Positions 4,052 to 23,368 of a DNA stretch of 25,755 nt are shown piece after piece. The stretch is from Chloroflexota bacterium (lineage in GTDB: Bacteria > Chloroflexota > UBA6077 > FW602-bin22 > JAMCYS01): positions 1 through 25,755 of the forward strand of contig JAMCYS010000152.1 in the NCBI GenBank assembly GCA_023473795.1, read 5' to 3'. The notes under the pieces are model-generated. The model was not told the origin of the DNA and did no database searches. It saw only the letters and a list, made by a program, of their open reading frames with translations. The stretch's first letter is position 1. The number at the start of each line of letters is the position of its first letter. The position numbers and the translations under genes were made by a program.

Positions 4052-4183
4052 GAATACTTGAATTAGCACTCCGCGCTCCCCGTTCTCCACCACTTGTTCC
4101 CTTCTCTCACGAAATGCCCGCCAAACCGGCGGGCGCAGCGTAATCATAGCCCGCTCGAGCCGACCGGTCAAATAGACACAGAA

Positions 4184-4212
4184 GAGCCGGCCGGGGAGTT
4201 CCTGGCCGGCTC
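4184..4212 (-). terminator. Intrinsic-terminator-like hairpin (9-bp GC stem gagccggcc/ggccggctc, 11-nt loop) 16 nt downstream of the Fe-ADH stop, followed on the minus strand by a U-rich tract (UUCUGUGUCUAUUU)
   Basis: Inverted repeat read at 4184-4192 and 4204-4212. The minus-strand stop codon is at 4229-4231. Confidence 0.45.
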
Positions 4213-5592: not shown

Positions 5593-6003
5593 CTAAGCCG
5601 GCTGGCCGGCCAAACGGGCGCGGATGAAGTTGGCGATGTCGGCAGTGGAGCTGCCGGGGCCGAAGGTCGCCGCCACACCCATTTCCTGCAAGGCGCGCAT
5701 GTCCTCGTCGGGTATGATCCCGCCCACGAGGACGACGATGTCCGTCAGCTGCTTCTGCCGCACCAACTCCATTACGCGCGGTACCAGGTCCATATGCGCC
5801 CCGGAGAGGATGCTCAAGCCAATGACGTCGGCGTCTTCCTGCAGCGCCGACTCGACGACCATTTCGGGGGTCTGCCTGAGCCCGGTGTAGATCACCTCCA
5901 TCCCGGCGTCGCGCAGCGCCCGGGCGAGGACCTTGACCCCCCGGTCGTGGCCATCCAGCCCCGGCTTGGCCAGCAGTACCCTGATTTTGCCTCTCTCAAC
6001 CAT
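5593..6003 (-). CDS. icmB: Coenzyme-B12-binding small subunit of a split acyl-CoA mutase (IcmB-like, 136 aa), with DxHxxG motif (DGHDRG)
   Basis: ATG at 6003..6001 is preceded by GAGAGGTG. The ORF-track start at 6012 is GTG without an RBS. Rossmann-like B12-domain motifs are present ([14 protein letters not shown]). Confidence 0.8.
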
Positions 6004-6037: not shown

Positions 6038-7711
6038 CTAGAGCACCGGCACCTCCATATAGGATCCGTAGACCTCGCGCAGCGCCTGAGTCATCTCGCC
6101 CAGCGTGCAATAAGCACGCACCGCGTCCAGCAGATAGGGCATCACGTTCTCCCCAGCCGCGGCCGCCTTGCTCAGAGCGCGCAGGCAGCGCTCGGCCTGC
6201 GCCCGGTCGCGCCGGCGGCGCACCTCCGCCAGGCGCGCCAGCTGCCGGCGCTCGCCCTCGGGGTCCATGCGCAGCAGAGGCACCTGCACCGGCTCGTCCG
6301 TGGTAAAGCCGTTGACCCCCACGACGATGCGCTCCCCGCTCTCCACTTCTTGCTGGTAGCGGAACGATGCCTCGGCGATCTCCTGTTGCGGGTAGTTGAC
6401 GCCAATCGCCGCCACCATCCCGCCCAGACGGTCGATGCGCTCGATGTACTCACGCGCCTGGCGCTCCAGCTCGTCGGTCAACGCTTCGACGAAGTACGAT
6501 CCCCCCAATGGATCGACGGTGTTCGTCACGCCGCTCTCATTGGCGATGATCTGCTGAGTGCGTAGGGCCACCCGCACGGCGCTTGCCGAGGGCAGGGCCA
6601 GGGCCTCGTCCATGGAATTAGTGTGCAGGGACTGGGTACCGCCCAGCACCGCCGCCAGGGCCTGCAGGGCCACCCGCACCACGTTGTTCTCCGGCTGCTG
6701 GGCCGTCAACGAACAGCCCGCCGTCTGGGTATGGAAGCGCAGCATCCAGGAGCTCGGGTCCTTGGCGCCGAAGCGCTCGCGCATGATCTTGGCCCATAGC
6801 CGCCGGGCCGCCCGGTACTTGGCGATCTCCTCAAAGAAGTCGCTATGGGCGTTGAAGAAGAACGAGAGCCGAGGGGCGAAGTCATCCAGGGCCAGGCCGC
6901 AGTCGAGCGACGCCTGCACGTAGGCGATGCCATCGGCCAGTGTGAAGGCCAGTTCCTGCGCCGCGGTCGAGCCGGCCTCCCGGATGTGATAGCCGCTGAT
7001 CGACACCGTGTTCCATTTGGGCAGGTGGCGGCTGCCAAATTCGATGGTGTCAATCACCAGTTTGAGCGCCGGCTCGGGCGGAAACAGGAACTCCTTCTGC
7101 GCTGTGTACTCTTTCAGGATGTCGTTCTGAAGGGTGCCGCCGAGCTCACCGAACGGGATGCCCTGCTTCTCGGCCGTCACCAGGTACATCGCCCAGATGA
7201 TGGCCGCTGGGCCGTTGATCGTCATCGAGGTCGTGACCTCGTCGAGGCGGATCCCATCGAAGAGGATTTCCATGTCGGCCAGCGAAGAAACGGCCACTCC
7301 GCACTTGCCGAACTCCCCCAGCGCCTGGGGGTCATCGGTGTCGAGCCCATACAGAGTCGGCATATCGAAAGCCACCGACAGGCCGCTCTCGCCGTGAGAC
7401 AGCAGGTATTTGAAGCGCTCGTTCGTTTCTTCAGCGGCGCCAAAGCCGGCGAACAGGCGCATCGTCCAGAGCCGGCCGCGATACATCGTGGGGTGGACGC
7501 CCCGGGTGAAGGGATACTCGCCGGGGAAACCGATTTCCCGCTGATAGGCGGCGACCTCGTCCGCCCCGGGCTCGTAGAGTCTCTGGGTCTGTACCCCGGA
7601 GATGGTGGTGAACTCAGATCGGCGCTCGGGCAGGCGCTCCAGCGACTTCGCCAGAGTAGTCTTCTCCCAGCGCGCGCGGTCGGCGGCGAGCCGTTCGCGG
7701 TCGTCCTGCAT
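6038..7711 (-). CDS. icmA: Acyl-CoA mutase large (catalytic TIM-barrel) subunit with an isobutyryl-CoA-mutase-type active-site signature. In methylmalonyl-CoA mutase the corresponding positions are Tyr89 and Arg207; here they are Phe (TMRLFAGFG) and Gln ([12 protein letters not shown]).
   Basis: Strong similarity to the methylmalonyl-CoA mutase alpha catalytic domain throughout ([33 protein letters not shown]). Specificity residues were read from the alignment-equivalent motifs. There is no C-terminal B12 domain, so this is a split enzyme. Confidence 0.8.
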
Positions 7712-7728
7712 GGCGGGCCTCCCCTAGC

Positions 7729-7788
7729 TGGGCGCTATACCAGCAATTGCCTGTGAGAAACGCTCTTCAATTTCAAGTATAGCGCCCA
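7729..7788. promoter_or_regulatory. 12-bp perfect inverted repeat TGGGCGCTATAC ... GTATAGCGCCCA flanking a 36-nt, comparatively AT-rich spacer, 18 nt upstream of the icmA start. On the minus strand the distal arm overlaps a TGGTATAGC extended -10-like element.
   Basis: Read directly (7729-7740 and 7777-7788). It lies in the 96-nt gap between the mce stop and the icmA start. Confidence 0.45.
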
Positions 7789-7807
7789 ACCTCAAACGGC
7801 TCCCAAC

Positions 7808-8230
7808 CTAGGTCTCAGGCTCGTGCCCCTTCTCCGCCAGCTCGACGAGCACGCCCCCGGTGGCTTTAGGGTGCAGAAAACCGACCCGCGAGCCGTGCGC
7901 GCCCGGCGCCGCCGCTCCCGAGCCGATCACCGCGCCCCGGGCCGATAGTTCGCCGAGCAGCTCGTCCAAACCTTCCACTTCCAGGCAGATGTGGTGTATG
8001 CCTTCACCACGCTTGTCGAGGTATTTGCCAACGGGGGTGTCCGGGCCGGTCGGCTCGAGCAATTCCAGCGTGGCCTCGCCCAGGGGCAGGAAGGCGACCT
8101 TCACCCCCTGGGCGGGCACGGTTTCGTAGTGATCGGCCGCGAGTCCTAGCGCCTCCTCGTAGAAGCGCACCGCTGCCTCCGCATCCCTGACGGCGATGCC
8201 GACGTGGTCGATCTTCTTGACACGTGGCAT
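7808..8230 (-). CDS. mce: Methylmalonyl-CoA epimerase (VOC/glyoxalase-fold)
   Basis: IDHVGIAVRD...HHICLEV...GGVLVEL metal-ligand pattern and 140-aa size. It is in the same operon context as a mutase. Confidence 0.8.
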   Translation of the reverse strand: MPRVKKIDHVGIAVRDAEAAVRFYEEALGLAADHYETVPAQGVKVAFLPLGEATLELLEPTGPDTPVGKYLDKRGEGIHHICLEVEGLDELLGELSARGAVIGSGAAAPGAHGSRVGFLHPKATGGVLVELAEKGHEPET

Positions 8231-8239
8231 TGGCGGAAC

Positions 8240-9757
8240 CTAGCCCTCGTGCCCGTTGCCGGCAGCCGGGGCCTTGGCAGTTGTGTCTTCCGCCTGCAAG
8301 TCGGCTAACGCCGGTATCTTGCGCAGAACGTCCTGCAACTTGAGCCCGGTGAGCGCCTCGATAACCGCCGGCATCTGGGCCATGATCTCGGTTATGTCCC
8401 GCGTAATCTTAGACGCTCCAGCGCCGTGACCGTCAGATCCGCCAATCATGACGATGCGGTCCGTCTTGCTGAGTGGTTCGGCGACGGCCCTGGCCAGCTC
8501 CGGCAGGCGCTCGACGATCATCTGGATTATGGCCGCCTCGTTGTACTCGTGCCAAGCCTCCGCCTTGCTCGACATAGCCGTCGCCTCGGCCGCGCCACGG
8601 GCCTTGGTCACGTCGGCGGCGGTCAGGCCGCGCGCGCGCTCGATGTCGACCTGCGCCAGGCCCTGCGCCCGCTCGGCGTCGGCCTGGCCCTGGCCCATCA
8701 GCCTTGCCGCCTCGGACTTGCCAGTCGCCTCGGCCCGCAGCTTGTACTGCTCGGCCTCGGCCAGCGTCTGGATACGAGTGCGCTCCGCCTCGGCCGGTTT
8801 CTGGACGTTGGCGACCAGTTCCCGCTCCCGACGGGCAACTTCCTTCTCCTGAACCAGGGTCTCCTGTTCCTTCTGGACTATCTGGACCTTCACCTCTTCG
8901 GCCTTGACGAGCTGCTCCGTCTTGTACTTCTGCAGGTCGTAGGCGAGGTCGGCCTCAGCCTTCTGCTGGTTGACTAGCATGTTGTACTGAGCGACCTTGA
9001 CGTTGTAGTCACGCTGCGACTCAGCAATTTTGGTCTGGGCCTCGATCTCGCCGATCTTGCCCAGCTGTTCGGCCTGCGCCCGCTTGATCTGGGTCTCCCG
9101 AGCGGCCTCGGCCTCGGCGATGGCCGCGTCGCGGCGCACCTCGGCGATGCGCGGCTTGCCCAGGGCCTCCAGGTAGCCCTGCTTGTCGTGCACGTCCTTG
9201 ATGGTGAAACTGATGACGGTGAAGCCCATGTTGCTGAAGTCGGTCGAGGATACTTCCTGTACCCGCTGGGCGAAGGCCTCGCGATTACGATAGACTTCCT
9301 CGACGGTCATCGTACCCATAATGGCCCGCAAGTGGCCCTCGAGGGTTTGCTTGACGACCTCTTTGCGCTCCTCGACGTTCTTGGAGAGGAACTGCTCTGC
9401 CGCGGTCGCGATCGAAACCAGGTCGCTTTGCACTTTGATCTGGGCCACGCCTTCCACGATGATGGGCACACCTTGCGAGGTGTAGACGTCCGGCGTGCCC
9501 ACGTCGATGGTCATCGTCTCCATCGACAGGGTCTTGAACGACTCGACGACCGGCATGACTATCGTGCCGCCGCCGCGCACGATGCGAAAGCCGACGTCCC
9601 GCGCCTGCCCACTCTCGTCGCGCAGCTTGCCGCCCCGACCATAGATGATCAGCGCCTCGTTGGGACCGACCTTACGATAGCGCGAGGCTGCCAACGCTAT
9701 GAGAAGAAAGATGCCTAGGACGATGCCTGCCACTAGCAGCGTGCTGGTGAAATCCAC
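8240..9757 (-). CDS. floT: Flotillin-like SPFH/band-7 protein (FloT/YuaG type) with N-terminal membrane anchor and Ala/Glu-rich coiled coil
   Basis: Close resemblance to B. subtilis YuaG along the SPFH domain (IVRGGGT, IATAAEQFL, GHLRAIMGTMTVEEVYRNRE, LGKPRIAEV). GTG start at 9757. The upstream nfeD partner is present. Confidence 0.9.
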   Translation of the reverse strand: MDFTSTLLVAGIVLGIFLLIALAASRYRKVGPNEALIIYGRGGKLRDESGQARDVGFRIVRGGGTIVMPVVESFKTLSMETMTIDVGTPDVYTSQGVPIIVEGVAQIKVQSDLVSIATAAEQFLSKNVEERKEVVKQTLEGHLRAIMGTMTVEEVYRNREAFAQRVQEVSSTDFSNMGFTVISFTIKDVHDKQGYLEALGKPRIAEVRRDAAIAEAEAARETQIKRAQAEQLGKIGEIEAQTKIAESQRDYNVKVAQYNMLVNQQKAEADLAYDLQKYKTEQLVKAEEVKVQIVQKEQETLVQEKEVARRERELVANVQKPAEAERTRIQTLAEAEQYKLRAEATGKSEAARLMGQGQADAERAQGLAQVDIERARGLTAADVTKARGAAEATAMSSKAEAWHEYNEAAIIQMIVERLPELARAVAEPLSKTDRIVMIGGSDGHGAGASKITRDITEIMAQMPAVIEALTGLKLQDVLRKIPALADLQAEDTTAKAPAAGNGHEG

Positions 9758-9822
9758 TTAGTTCACCCTCCCTTTGCGACACTCGAATGCCCGCCCGAAC
9801 GACGGCTACGAACCCGCCAACT

Positions 9823-10449
9823 CTACCCCTCGTCAGAGGCCGAACCGAGGGCCTCGTCCTCCATTGACACTACCTCGGCCACACCCTTGTGTAAGCGTAC
9901 GATCGCCACCCTCGTGCCACTGGCCAAGGGCACGCCGCTGGCAGACCGCGCCGGCAATTGCATGCGGCTGCCACGGGCGGAGAAGACGATCTCGCCCAGC
10001 CCCTCGGCCGGAATGCTGACCCGCACCTTGGCCAGAGCCTGGGCCACCTCTCTCATGTCCGGCGAGCTACTGCCCTGGGCCCTCACTAGCGGCCGCCACA
10101 CCGCTAGGAAGAATGCCCCGGCAACCAGTACCGCCCCGACCGTGGCGAGAAGGAGCGAAAGCCAATCGGGCAGGCCAATATACCTGTAGGTCAACAGGCC
10201 AATGCCCCCCACGGCCAGAGAGAAAGCCGCTATGGTAAGAGAGTTGACCGGGGATACATGGTGGGCGCCGACGTCGTGGCCAGCGTCAAGCTCGTGCCCG
10301 CCGCCCAAGTCGTGCGACAAGTCCACGTCGTGGCCGCCGGCTATGTCGTGGCCGCCCAGACCACCGGCGAGCAAGCCGAACACGCCGTAGCCGAGCCCAA
10401 AGAGGAACGCCACCCAATAGAACAGTTCCAGCCCGTTTAGCCCACCCAT
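9823..10449 (-). CDS. nfeD: NfeD/YuaF-like membrane protein (3 TM segments plus C-terminal OB-fold beta-barrel), partner of flotillin. It contains an unusual His/Asp-rich GHD repeat loop.
   Basis: TM helices plus C-terminal VRVSIPAEGLGEIVFSARGSRMQLPARS...VAIVRLHKGVAEVV OB-like domain. Gene order nfeD-floT matches yuaF-yuaG. Strong RBS GGGAGGAGGG before ATG 10449. Confidence 0.75.
   Translation of the reverse strand: MGGLNGLELFYWVAFLFGLGYGVFGLLAGGLGGHDIAGGHDVDLSHDLGGGHELDAGHDVGAHHVSPVNSLTIAAFSLAVGGIGLLTYRYIGLPDWLSLLLATVGAVLVAGAFFLAVWRPLVRAQGSSSPDMREVAQALAKVRVSIPAEGLGEIVFSARGSRMQLPARSASGVPLASGTRVAIVRLHKGVAEVVSMEDEALGSASDEG
10255..10356 (-). repeat. In-frame nucleotide tandem repeats GTCGTG(G/C)CC(GCC) encoding GHD/HD units (GGHDIAGGHDVDLSHDLGGGHELDAGHDVGAHH) inside nfeD
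   Basis: gtcgtggcc/gtcgtgccc/gtcgtgcga motifs recur about 6 times at roughly 18-21 nt spacing on the plus strand. Their reverse complement encodes Gly-His-Asp. Confidence 0.6.

Positions 10450-11227: not shown

Positions 11228-11231
<4 letters not shown>
10473..11231 (-). CDS. Gamma-class carbonic anhydrase family (left-handed beta-helix, hexapeptide repeat) protein with about 95-aa Pro/Ala-rich low-complexity N-terminal extension; all three Cam-type zinc-ligand His positions conserved
   Basis: [11 protein letters not shown] and [12 protein letters not shown] match the Cam motifs (H81, H117, H122 equivalents). The start ATG 11231..11229 overlaps the upstream mutase stop (ATGA). The ORF-track upstream extension has no RBS and is rejected. 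Confidence 0.75.
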
Positions 11232-12919
<1,688 letters not shown>

Positions 12920-18876: not shown

Positions 18877-18963
18877 CAACGCAACCTGCCCCGCCAGAAC
18901 GAAGATCCCCTTCCCGCTAGGCAGGAAGGGGGTTGTCAGTAACCAGCAGATGTTGGTCTGTTG

Positions 18964-19155
18964 TTTGTGGTGAGCGCTCATCTGCCCCAGCGGCTATGGG
19001 GTCAGCGTTTTCCCGGGTGCCCGAAGAGGCACAAAGCACTAAAGTGCTCACTACGAACCCGTAGCACGGCTGCGTTTGTAGTGAGCGCTTTAGCGCTTTC
19101 CCCAGCGCATGAGGCGGCACGAAGCACTGAAGTGCTCACTGCGAGCCCGGAGTGC
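18964..19155. repeat. Two tandem copies (about 110 nt and about 82 nt) of a palindrome-rich intergenic element. Each unit has TTTGT(G/A)GTGAGCGCT ... CCCCAGCG ... GAGGC.CA.AAGCACT(A/G)AAGTGCTCACT(A/G)CGA.CCCG.
   Basis: Read directly. The palindromes are GTGAGCGCTCA (18970-18980), AGCACTAAAGTGCT (19035-19048), AGCGCTTTAGCGCT (19084-19097) and AGCACTGAAGTGCT (19123-19136), plus hairpin CCCCA-gcggcta-TGGGG (18985-19001). Unit 2 lacks about 30 nt present in unit 1. Confidence 0.6.
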
Positions 19156-19162
19156 GGCCGAG

Positions 19163-21212: not shown

Positions 21213-21914
21213 TCAGTCGCCGAACGTGCCGCCGGCGCTGGCCAGCGCGGCCTCCAGGTCTTGCCTGGTGTGCTGGTGATGCCAGCGGAGACGGCGCTCG
21301 GCCTCAGCCGCATCGCCCGCGAGGAAGGCGGCGAGAATCTCCTTGTGCTCCAGGTGGCCGGCAAGCGGTCTGCCGGGCACGTCGAAGGCCCGCCAGCGGA
21401 TCATCAGGAACTGGTCGTGCATGTTCTCGAAAACGCGCAGCAAGCGGCGGTTGCCCGAGGCCTGCACGAGCAGGCGGTGCAACTCCATGTCCAGGCGGCT
21501 GAAGCCCCGCTGATCGCGAGCCGCCACAAGCGGTTCCGCCTCCGCCACCAGCTCCGCGAGGCGACGGTCCAGCCCCGGCGTGCGCCTCTGTAAGGCCCGC
21601 ACGATAGCGTGCGCCTCCAGGACCTCACGGACCTCCAACACCTCGCGAATGTCCTCGGCGGTAATGGAGACGACGACGGCGCCCCGCCGGGGCAGGTACT
21701 GCACCAGGCCCTCCCGTTCCAGGCGCGAGATGGCCTCACGCACCGGCGTGTTGGAGACGCCAATCTGTTCGGCCAGGGCAGCCTCGGTGAGGCGGGAGCC
21801 GGCAGCCAGGGTATTCTCGATGATGGCGGTCTTGAGGGTGGCGTAGACCGAGTCGGTCAGGTTGAGATGGCGCTCGACCCGGGGTAGACTCAACAGCTCC
21901 ACTGGCACCTCCAA
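21213..21914 (-). CDS. GntR-family transcriptional regulator with FadR-type C-terminal (FCD) ligand-binding domain
   Basis: N-terminal wHTH (SRLTEAALAEQIGVSNTPVREAISRLEREGLV) plus C-terminal all-helical FCD-like region. The start may be GTG 21908 (better-spaced GGAAG RBS) rather than TTG 21914. Confidence 0.85.
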   Translation of the reverse strand: MEVPVELLSLPRVERHLNLTDSVYATLKTAIIENTLAAGSRLTEAALAEQIGVSNTPVREAISRLEREGLVQYLPRRGAVVVSITAEDIREVLEVREVLEAHAIVRALQRRTPGLDRRLAELVAEAEPLVAARDQRGFSRLDMELHRLLVQASGNRRLLRVFENMHDQFLMIRWRAFDVPGRPLAGHLEHKEILAAFLAGDAAEAERRLRWHHQHTRQDLEAALASAGGTFGD

Positions 21915-21945: not shown

Positions 21946-21966
21946 CAGCATACAGCGGGTATGCTG
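21946..21966. promoter_or_regulatory. 8-bp perfect inverted repeat CAGCATAC-agcgg-GTATGCTG between the MFS stop and the GntR start; candidate GntR autoregulatory operator or MFS terminator hairpin
   Basis: Read directly. It is located 32-52 nt upstream of the GntR start codon. Confidence 0.35.
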
Positions 21967-22027
21967 TCCTGTCAAGCAAGGCCAGGGCATCCACCGCTTT
22001 CCGCGGGGGCGCGGCGCCCGGCGACGG

Positions 22028-23254: not shown

Positions 23255-23368
23255 GGCCAGGTATTGTAGCGCCCACGCCCCGAGAAGTCATTCCCTCAAG
23301 CGCGGCAGACCAAGCAGGTCCGGCCAACAGTGGGCTTGCCGCCGGCACCCGCCTGGTCGCACGGCGAG

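Follow-up and report, generated by a model that had tools for sequence, protein, structure and literature searches.

The stretch of DNA considered here (the window) is the 25,755 nt of contig JAMCYS010000152.1 (assembly GCA_023473795.1), from an uncultured Chloroflexota bacterium, and the element in question, a perfect 12-bp inverted repeat, lies in the 96 nt that separate mce, which encodes methylmalonyl-CoA epimerase, from icmA, which encodes the large subunit of an acyl-CoA mutase. Beyond the gap, icmA is followed by genes for an icmB-type subunit and an Fe-alcohol dehydrogenase, all of them on the minus strand. On the other side, mce is the last gene of a tightly packed series, with gaps of 9, 65 and 23 nt flanking its last three genes, and this close packing suggests an operon. 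The name icmA was proposed by the initial annotation of this DNA and has been borne out as to type. Specifically, at the positions of Tyr89 and Arg207 of methylmalonyl-CoA mutase (MCM) the encoded protein has Phe and Gln (within RLFAGF and KEYTAQKE), replacements that we take to be the mark of an IcmA-type mutase, whereas a paralog encoded at 12919..11228 has the MCM residues (RQYAGY, KEYYARGT). Because these residues are combined with a separate B12-binding subunit of 136 aa encoded downstream, the label appears reasonable; related specificities, such as those of pivalyl-CoA and 2-hydroxyisobutyryl-CoA mutases, remain candidates.

The repeat is formed by TGGGCGCTATAC at 7729–7740 and GTATAGCGCCCA at 7777–7788 (forward-strand letters), separated by 36 nt and lying 48 bp apart centre to centre. 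They had been described as exact reverse complements over 12 of 12 positions within the intergenic region, and both sequences and coordinates are confirmed; the complementarity runs on imperfectly, such that arms of 21 nt match at 86%. The spacer is AT-rich, as had also been said, with 42% GC, whereas the gap as a whole has 56% and the window 66%. When folded as RNA, the 96-nt intergenic region gives z = -3.97 and the hairpin z = -5.9 relative to shuffled sequences. Under a first-order Markov null, the chance of such a repeat in this gap alone is ~7e-4, and perfect inverted repeats with arms of at least 12 bp and spacers of 3–60 nt are expected 0.19 times per 25.7-kb window, with 13% of null windows containing at least one. 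The real window holds three. One of them is coding: at 1210–1236, within the coding sequence of a GlcD-like FAD oxidase (encoding ...GERMALT...), two perfectly complementary 12-bp arms flank a loop of 3 nt. Because of this coding example, the Markov null must understate the natural background, and therefore a perfect repeat is not by itself proof of function. Cruciform extrusion is disfavoured by a 36-nt spacer, and we set it aside on these general grounds rather than by calculation.

The same junction can be followed in a small set of related sequences. A near-identical contig (L081, ENA ERZ27236928) differs from the window by 5 mismatches across 7.4 kb and another (L162, GCA_027399255.1) is likewise near-identical; both have an identical gap, and the repeat is thus unchanged in three independent assemblies of the species. 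Four syntenic relatives span 78–99% mutase identity, among them three informative lineages from a larger protein collection, L163 (83% mutase identity), L164 (81%) and L165 (78%), which keep the whole gene order. Farther afield, 160 mutase loci were fetched from genome_contigs and metagenome_contigs, that is, from species-representative genomes and JGI metagenomes, in which the closest mutase has 71% identity. The motif is absent from the junction in all 160 of these loci (≤71–72% identity); mce lies directly upstream of the mutase gene in only four (L005, L027, L089 and L110), and their junctions are unrelated to that of the window. Motif counts within the species refer to ~34 kb in total, namely the window plus ~8 kb of additional sequence.

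Comparison of the four lineages identifies the mce-side arm as the end of the spacer and the TATACT -10 box of a conserved, predicted internal promoter of the sigma-70 type (Table 1). This arm, which is the 5′ arm in the sense RNA, is the most conserved segment, with window-specific letters in 2 of 16 alignment columns compared with 6 of 16 in the 3′ arm. In the window, L163, L164 and L165, respectively, the -10 box reads TATACT, TACACT, TATACT and TATACT, and the -35-like hexamer reads TTGGGA, TTGGAG, TTGGAG and CTAGGG at a spacing of 18–19 nt. The box of the window is 64 nt from the icmA ATG. In the aligned lineages a G-rich run precedes the TAyACT box (TTGGGCGC, GTGGGTGT, GTGGGCAG), and both box and run are kept in L163 and L165. 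In L164, ppa (inorganic pyrophosphatase) is inserted at 9399–9928 between mce and icmA, and TTGGAG-18-TATACT is found directly upstream of ppa, with the box 8 nt from an ATG that lies ahead of the start called for ppa; the complement downstream of the box is not significant there (p = 0.29). Since the box is kept in this position with no hairpin partner, it is an autonomous element, as would be expected of a promoter. As a separate matter, ppa of L164 seems to have captured the icmA promoter box. In wider-family orthologs, -10 boxes of the form TATAAT, TAAAAT or TACAAT occur 40–75 nt before the mutase ATG, and among the lineages compared no alternative -10 box is conserved upstream of the hairpin. 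The species has a second TATACT promoter, TTGACA-17-TATACT, upstream of an Rce1-like gene (L162:13297).

These observations relocate the promoter within the repeat. The initial annotation had the repeat overlapping the icmA promoter, which it does, and had placed the -10 element on the icmA-proximal arm, as an extended -10-like sequence TGGTATAGC 25 nt upstream of the ATG. This sequence is present at 7734–7742, and its hexamer ends 22 nt before the ATG. We reject that candidate: it is missing the near-invariant final T, nothing in the relatives corresponds to it, and the box shared by four lineages lies on the other arm.

Table 1. Features of the mce–icmA junction and its flanking genes (window coordinates).
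Feature	Coordinates	Strand	Remarks
mce, methylmalonyl-CoA epimerase, upstream gene	8230..7808	minus	TIGR03081, 141.5 bits, above cut-off
-35-like hexamer TTGGGA, 19 nt upstream of -10 box, 1 nt past mce stop codon	7801..7806	minus	weak, 3/6 matches
Full hairpin predicted for read-through RNA; 16-bp outer stem including 3 G·U pairs, -32.1 kcal/mol	7726..7791	minus	from folding
mce-side arm (5′ arm in sense RNA), TGGGCGCTATAC	7777..7788	minus	last 7 nt of promoter spacer and first 5 nt of -10 box
-10 box TATACT of predicted internal icmA promoter	7776..7781	minus	conserved across four lineages
AT-rich spacer (loop), 36 nt, 42% GC	7741..7776	minus	inner stem AAUUG/CAAUU and mini-hairpin GAG-CGUUU-CUC (7755–7765)
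icmA-side arm (3′ arm in sense RNA), GTATAGCGCCCA	7729..7740	minus	in leader, ends 4 nt before Shine-Dalgarno sequence
Shine-Dalgarno sequence GGGGAGG of icmA	7718..7724	minus	invariant in alignment
icmA start codon	7709–7711	minus	
icmA-type acyl-CoA mutase large subunit, downstream gene	7711..6038	minus	TIGR00641; RLFAGF and KEYTAQKE signatures
icmB-type small B12-binding subunit, 136 aa, 34 nt 3′ of icmA	6003..5593	minus	PF02310 in identical contig L081

In addition to the box, the comparison establishes partial conservation of the pairing. The alignment of the window, L163 and L165 covers the ~92 nt preceding the ATG at 74% column identity, and the features common to these lineages are a weak -35-like element (TTGGRG, but CTAGGG in L165), the TAyACT box, a small GAGG...CCUC hairpin (columns 41–44/51–54) ~7 nt past the box, and a C-rich run (GCGCCCAG, CCGCCCAC, CCGCCTAC) before an invariant GGGAGG Shine-Dalgarno (SD) sequence. 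The outer ten pairs of the stem (columns 18–27 with 74–83) lie in the same register in all three, with 90% of cells paired compared with 41–55% when the partner is slid, a control that is biased in that the structure was derived from the window sequence itself. Two of these pairs have changed on both sides and three on one. RNAalifold recovers the outer stem independently, and adds an extension at its base that pairs the SD sequence with a segment upstream of the 5′ arm. Scored as a duplex against shuffled sequences, the promoter-side segment paired with the leader gives p = 0.07 and 0.04 in the two relatives (~0.02 by Fisher combination) and z = -6.2 in the window; for the hairpin as a whole, z is -3.3 in L165 and only -1.35 in L163, where a fold of the leader alone pairs UUCCUCC with the SD sequence. 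The proposition that a hairpin precedes the SD sequence in every lineage was discarded, as the one before icmA in L164 is no better than shuffles (z = -0.1). In 97 sources (0.7 Mb of related loci), a search with a covariance model of the three-lineage alignment turned up no members beyond those lineages. From these three sequences, we hypothesize that the outer stem is a conserved structure.

If the outer stem is conserved, there are two indications of the level at which it acts. By manual count, wobble positions in the alignment can be read as G·U on the sense strand in 6 cases and on the antisense strand in 1, and the distance from the GGG core to the CCC core is 57, 56 and 53 nt in the window, L163 and L165, with loop length varying by 4 nt, which would be tolerable for an RNA and not for phased sites on DNA. 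The strand bias and the variable core distance favour RNA over duplex DNA.

The inner half of the stem has a different history from the outer half. The inner six pairs (TATAC with GTATA, and a C-G pair) are confined to the window lineage, where they were created by four substitutions unique to the window, all inside a 6-nt segment of the 3′ arm (columns 69, 70, 71 and 74) and each making a Watson-Crick pair with the -10 box, while the 5′ arm was unchanged. Likewise, the GCGCCCA part of the 3′ arm has counterparts in the relatives (CCGCCCAC, CCGCCTAC) and the GTATAG part is specific to the window. It has been described that template switching during replication can perfect an existing imperfect stem in one event through clustered changes (PMC8794818), and enlargement of inverted repeats in promoters by template switching has been proposed (PMC13100816). 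The junction resembles such cases in that a cluster of substitutions on one arm turned an imperfect stem into an exact complement; it differs from them in that our case rests on two outgroups and that the switch points are not reconstructable. To us, it looks like the G/C-rich half of the stem is ancestral and the TATAC/GTATA half was added in the window lineage by a template-switch-like event. The relatives show the repeat to be a composite of a promoter element and a leader element, whose symmetry would act, if at all, at the level of RNA.

With these observations in mind, we tentatively favour the idea that the repeat encodes a hairpin at the junction which would insulate icmA from read-through. 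Of the two options offered by the initial annotation, the second, a long stem-loop in the mce–icmA junction RNA, is the one that best fits the comparative data. As judged from the position of the TATACT box, icmA transcription would start at ~7768 (7767–7769), inside the 36-nt spacer. The promoter-derived icmA-icmB mRNA would contain only the 3′ arm, would carry the GAG/CUC hairpin at its 5′ terminus and would leave the SD sequence free. Because such an mRNA lacks the 5′ arm, the long hairpin would be confined to read-through transcripts coming from mce. Transcripts of the mcm...flotillin-mce operon that continue into icmA would have both arms and could fold the 16-bp stem, the base of which abuts the SD sequence and may take it in. 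In that RNA, the stem would shield or process the 3′ end of the upstream message, limit icmA translation, or both, with the effect that icmA expression would follow its own promoter and the two transcription units would be kept apart. The gaps of the relatives can be viewed in this light. In L163 and L165, where the gap is 300 and 181 nt long, strong hairpins of their own directly follow mce and the stems at the junction are weaker, and the 96-nt gap of the window has no other hairpin and the strongest junction stem of the lineages compared. The pairing of the shortest gap with the strongest stem, with no second hairpin after mce, is consistent with insulation. If this is correct, then the one slightly unusual feature is that an arm of the hairpin is also the core promoter, so that folding would depend on where the transcript starts.

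Several points weigh against this interpretation. The -35 element is weak (3 of 6 positions) and the 19-nt promoter spacer is long, and a scan for consensus promoters and terminators reported nothing at the repeat. The stem has no U-tail and so is no canonical terminator. Covariation is not significant when compared with shuffles (108 of 500 reach the observed score, with three sequences), the covariation term of RNAalifold is unfavourable (+1.34), the slid-partner control carries the bias already described, and the hairpin of L163 is not clearly better than shuffles, in DNA of 66% GC where G- and C-rich runs pair readily. In addition, both arms are conserved in sequence (consensus nTGGGCG), as a DNA-binding protein would also explain. 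Finally, we infer the transcription start, the read-through from mce and the effect of the hairpin from sequence.

A more specific version of the favoured interpretation can be imagined, in which the hairpin sorts transcripts by origin. Promoter-started mRNA would have a free SD sequence, read-through RNA would have its SD sequence covered or would be a substrate for RNase III, and icmA-icmB would be translated only from its own promoter. We consider this version rather improbable; nonetheless, if it is true, discrimination by origin would be a neat principle for insulating a gene from operon read-through, and placing the silencing arm inside the core promoter would be a compact way of uncoupling a gene from its operon.

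It is also worth considering that the perfect symmetry may have no function at all, which we regard as somewhat unlikely and as the most serious of the alternatives to an insulating hairpin. Here, a template switch would have copied the -10 region, reverse-complemented, into a leader that already had imperfect complementarity between G-rich and C-rich runs, whether from composition or from descent, and the product would be tolerated and unused. The four clustered changes on one arm are what such an event would leave behind, since a template switch yields a perfect stem in a single step (PMC8794818) and expansion of inverted repeats in promoters by this route has been proposed (PMC13100816). 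Furthermore, no relative has the perfect TATAC/GTATA pairing, covariation is not significant, the coding repeat at 1210–1236 indicates that such repeats arise with no regulatory meaning, and under the promoter model the main transcript would be unable to form the hairpin in the first place. Set against these arguments are the outer half of the stem, whose pairing register is shared by two relatives (combined p ~0.02), the 6-to-1 preference of wobble positions for the sense strand, the identity of the repeat in three independent assemblies, and the occurrence of the strongest stem where the gap is shortest and no other hairpin follows mce.

The first option of the initial annotation, a bipartite operator for a dimeric regulator, fares less well, failing most of the checks which that annotation had set for it, and we think it unlikely. 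In this scenario, a regulator would bind inverted nTGGGCG(CTA) boxes, one in the promoter spacer and -10 region and the other at about +35, would bend the AT-rich 36-bp spacer and would repress the icmA promoter. There is some appeal to this. The arms are conserved in sequence and not in pairing alone, as is apparent from the six half-sites of the three lineages (TTGGGCG, CTGGGCG, GTGGGTG, GTGGGCG, GTGGGCA and GTAGGCG); one box lies over the -10 region, the classic position for a repressor; and the spacer is the most AT-rich stretch nearby. However, only half of each arm is common to the relatives: nTGGGCG is found on both arms in L163 and L165, TATAC on one arm, and the second site is missing in L164, which retains the promoter box, and in orthologs of ≤72% identity, so that the conservation upstream of icmA orthologs which had been put forward as a check on an operator is not found at that distance. 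The distance between the boxes shifts by 4 bp among the relatives, a rotation of ~135 degrees around the helix, a loop held by a protein would be very short with centres only 48 bp apart, and a sense-strand bias in G·U positions would be meaningless for duplex DNA. Likewise, no regulator gene adjoins icmA; the nearest one found is a GntR/FCD gene ~13 kb distant.

Recurrence of the motif at other promoters, which would have pointed to a regulon, comes down to two sites. In the ~34 kb of the species, arm-like sequences occur elsewhere only at 23263–23276 and at L162:13297, both of which are sense-oriented, ordinary -10 regions of unrelated genes. The former deserves comment in that the heptamer TGGGCGC precedes the -10 box of an MFS gene heading an MFS-GntR pair in the same cluster, which at first sight favours an operator. 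On the minus strand, this site reads GTGGGCGC-TACAAT, followed by 8 nt and the ATG, a leaderless layout; TANNNT ~12 nt before the start codon has been described as a signature of leaderless genes in a study that takes in Chloroflexi (PMC3160421). The -10 box of the MFS gene is kept in L166, L168 and L169 (6–9 nt before the ATG in L166 and L168, with a longer leader in L169), and the G-box before it varies, reading GTGGGCGC, GGGGGCGC, GCGGCGGC and AACAGGC in the window and these three relatives. Hence the 9-mer TAGCGCCCA upstream of the MFS-GntR pair was rejected as a third operator, given its leaderless -10 context and a G-box not conserved in L166, L168 or L169; as a GntR site it is also disfavoured, since the GntR gene carries a different, compact palindrome of its own, CAGCATAC-N5-GTATGCTG (21946–21966), over a textbook promoter. 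That palindrome is of interest in its own right. It overlaps the TTGACA-17-TATGCT promoter (21946–21975, minus strand) of the GntR/FCD gene (21914..21213), where L166 and L168 retain TTGACAGG and GCTGTA, and it is likely to be an autoregulatory operator.

Apart from these, we consider it very unlikely that the region is a cis-regulatory leader RNA, riboswitch-like or protein-binding, in which TATACT would be a conserved RNA motif, the transcript would begin ahead of the hairpin and the hairpin would gate the SD sequence. A region of ~90 nt that is 74% identical, with a conserved stem, a central mini-hairpin and an anti-SD-like CCUC(C) tract, is what one might expect of such an RNA, and in L163 the leader by itself can pair UUCCUCC with the SD sequence. 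Against it stand L164, which keeps TATACT with no hairpin and 8 nt before an ATG, the lack of a conserved -10 box upstream of the hairpin, and the failure of the covariance model to find members past three lineages in 0.7 Mb. Likewise, Rfam 15 gave no match at gathering thresholds for the whole window, and at the repeat (7650–7870, E≤10) only chance-level matches with E values of 0.8–2.4, none of which supports a known leader family.

An intrinsic terminator of the mce operon is highly improbable. The hairpin is indeed the sole strong one in the 96-nt gap after mce, and the relatives have strong hairpins right after mce; nonetheless, its loop is 36 nt long, the stem is followed by GCUAGGGGAGG, which is no U-tract, and the genome uses U-tailed terminators elsewhere, for example at 4184–4212, followed by UUCUGUGUCUAUUU, and at 18931..18907. 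The weakest of the alternatives, a copy of a dispersed palindromic element such as a repetitive extragenic palindromic (REP) sequence or a miniature inverted-repeat transposable element (MITE), is largely refuted and scarcely credible despite a palindromic architecture of ~60 nt in an intergenic gap, as neither the window nor the ~8 kb of extra same-species sequence has another copy, the pattern GGGCGCTATAC-N26-46-GTATAGCGCCC has 0 matches in metagenome_contigs and 0 in viral_contigs, and the region is orthologous and alignable in the relatives.

It is informative to examine the favoured junction hairpin in light of known systems. Intercistronic stem-loops such as the malE-malF REP hairpin and the hairpins of the Rhodobacter puf operon set transcript boundaries or the stability of transcript segments. 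The structure described here is like these in being a long stable hairpin with no U-tract between co-oriented metabolic genes, just before the downstream SD sequence, and apparently in having a structure conserved more than its sequence; it differs in that its 5′ arm doubles as a -10 region, that it would exist only in read-through RNA, and that it is single-copy and not a REP element. Stem-loops of the ompA type are stabilizing hairpins at the 5′ end of a leader. Here the TAyACT box at ~65–70 nt from the ATG and the small GAGG...CCUC hairpin at the predicted +1 are similar, and in the distant orthologs L002 and L083 a hairpin begins immediately past the -10 box; this 5′ hairpin is distinct from the 12-bp repeat, which spans promoter and leader. 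Rho-independent terminators share a G/C-rich stem past a stop codon and differ from the window hairpin in its 36-nt loop and lack of a U-tract. Finally, the looping operators of gal (OE/OI), lac (O1/O3) and AraC (I1/O2) form loops of ~90–210 bp in which helical phase is kept. Although the window likewise has two copies of a site flanking a transcription start (here a predicted one), with one copy over the core promoter, its sites are 48 bp apart, their phase is not kept among the relatives, and no cognate regulator or regulon was found.

The lesson of this locus is mainly cautionary, in that a striking perfect repeat appears to be a -10 box and its recently generated reverse complement rather than a two-site operator. 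The feature is real, ordinary in kind (a promoter and junction hairpin, not a new type of operator) and confined to one small clade. It offers a clean case, from bacterial regulatory DNA, in which a clustered, template-switch-like change to one arm seems to have made a stem perfect, and it places a predicted internal icmA-icmB promoter within an extended, conserved cluster of acyl-CoA/propionate genes in a Chloroflexota lineage of which few genomes have been sampled.

The surroundings of the junction contain further features. Two paralogs of the mutase large subunit share one cluster: the ICM-type gene at 6038–7711 (minus strand), with its small B12-binding subunit, and the MCM-type gene at 11228–12919 (minus strand), which adjoins genes for transcarboxylase 12S, 5S and BCCP and whose own B12-binding subunit gene is absent from the window. 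Between the MCM gene and mce (8240–10449, minus strand) genes for a flotillin (FloT-like), an NfeD-like membrane protein and a hexapeptide/gamma-carbonic-anhydrase-like protein are embedded in what is otherwise an acyl-CoA metabolic operon, an order kept in all four lineages.

Other palindromic elements are found elsewhere in the window. At 225–262, an inverted repeat with perfect arms of 14 bp and a loop of 10 nt (CGACTGAGAGCGGC...GCCGCTCTCAGTCG) lies across the stop codon of a 130-aa minus-strand gene (as called in L162); it has no U-tail on either strand and thus gives this genome another long hairpin that lacks a tail and sits where genes meet. Past the Fe-alcohol dehydrogenase gene (4116–4212, minus strand), the U-tailed terminator at 4184–4212 is followed by a TTGACC-17-TATGAT promoter (4143–4171), and ~8 nt after its -10 box begins a hairpin, GCCCGCCGGTTTGGCGGGC (4116–4134), ahead of an 88-aa open reading frame with no assigned function. 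Finally, the gap upstream of the thiolase gene (19004–19158) contains a 67-nt direct repeat in two copies that are 78% identical, with internal AGCACTnAAGTGCT-type palindromes, as well as an inverted repeat of 26 nt (88%). L166 and L168 lack the repeat region in the corresponding gap, and these sequences may represent either a small repeat element restricted to the species or two operators.

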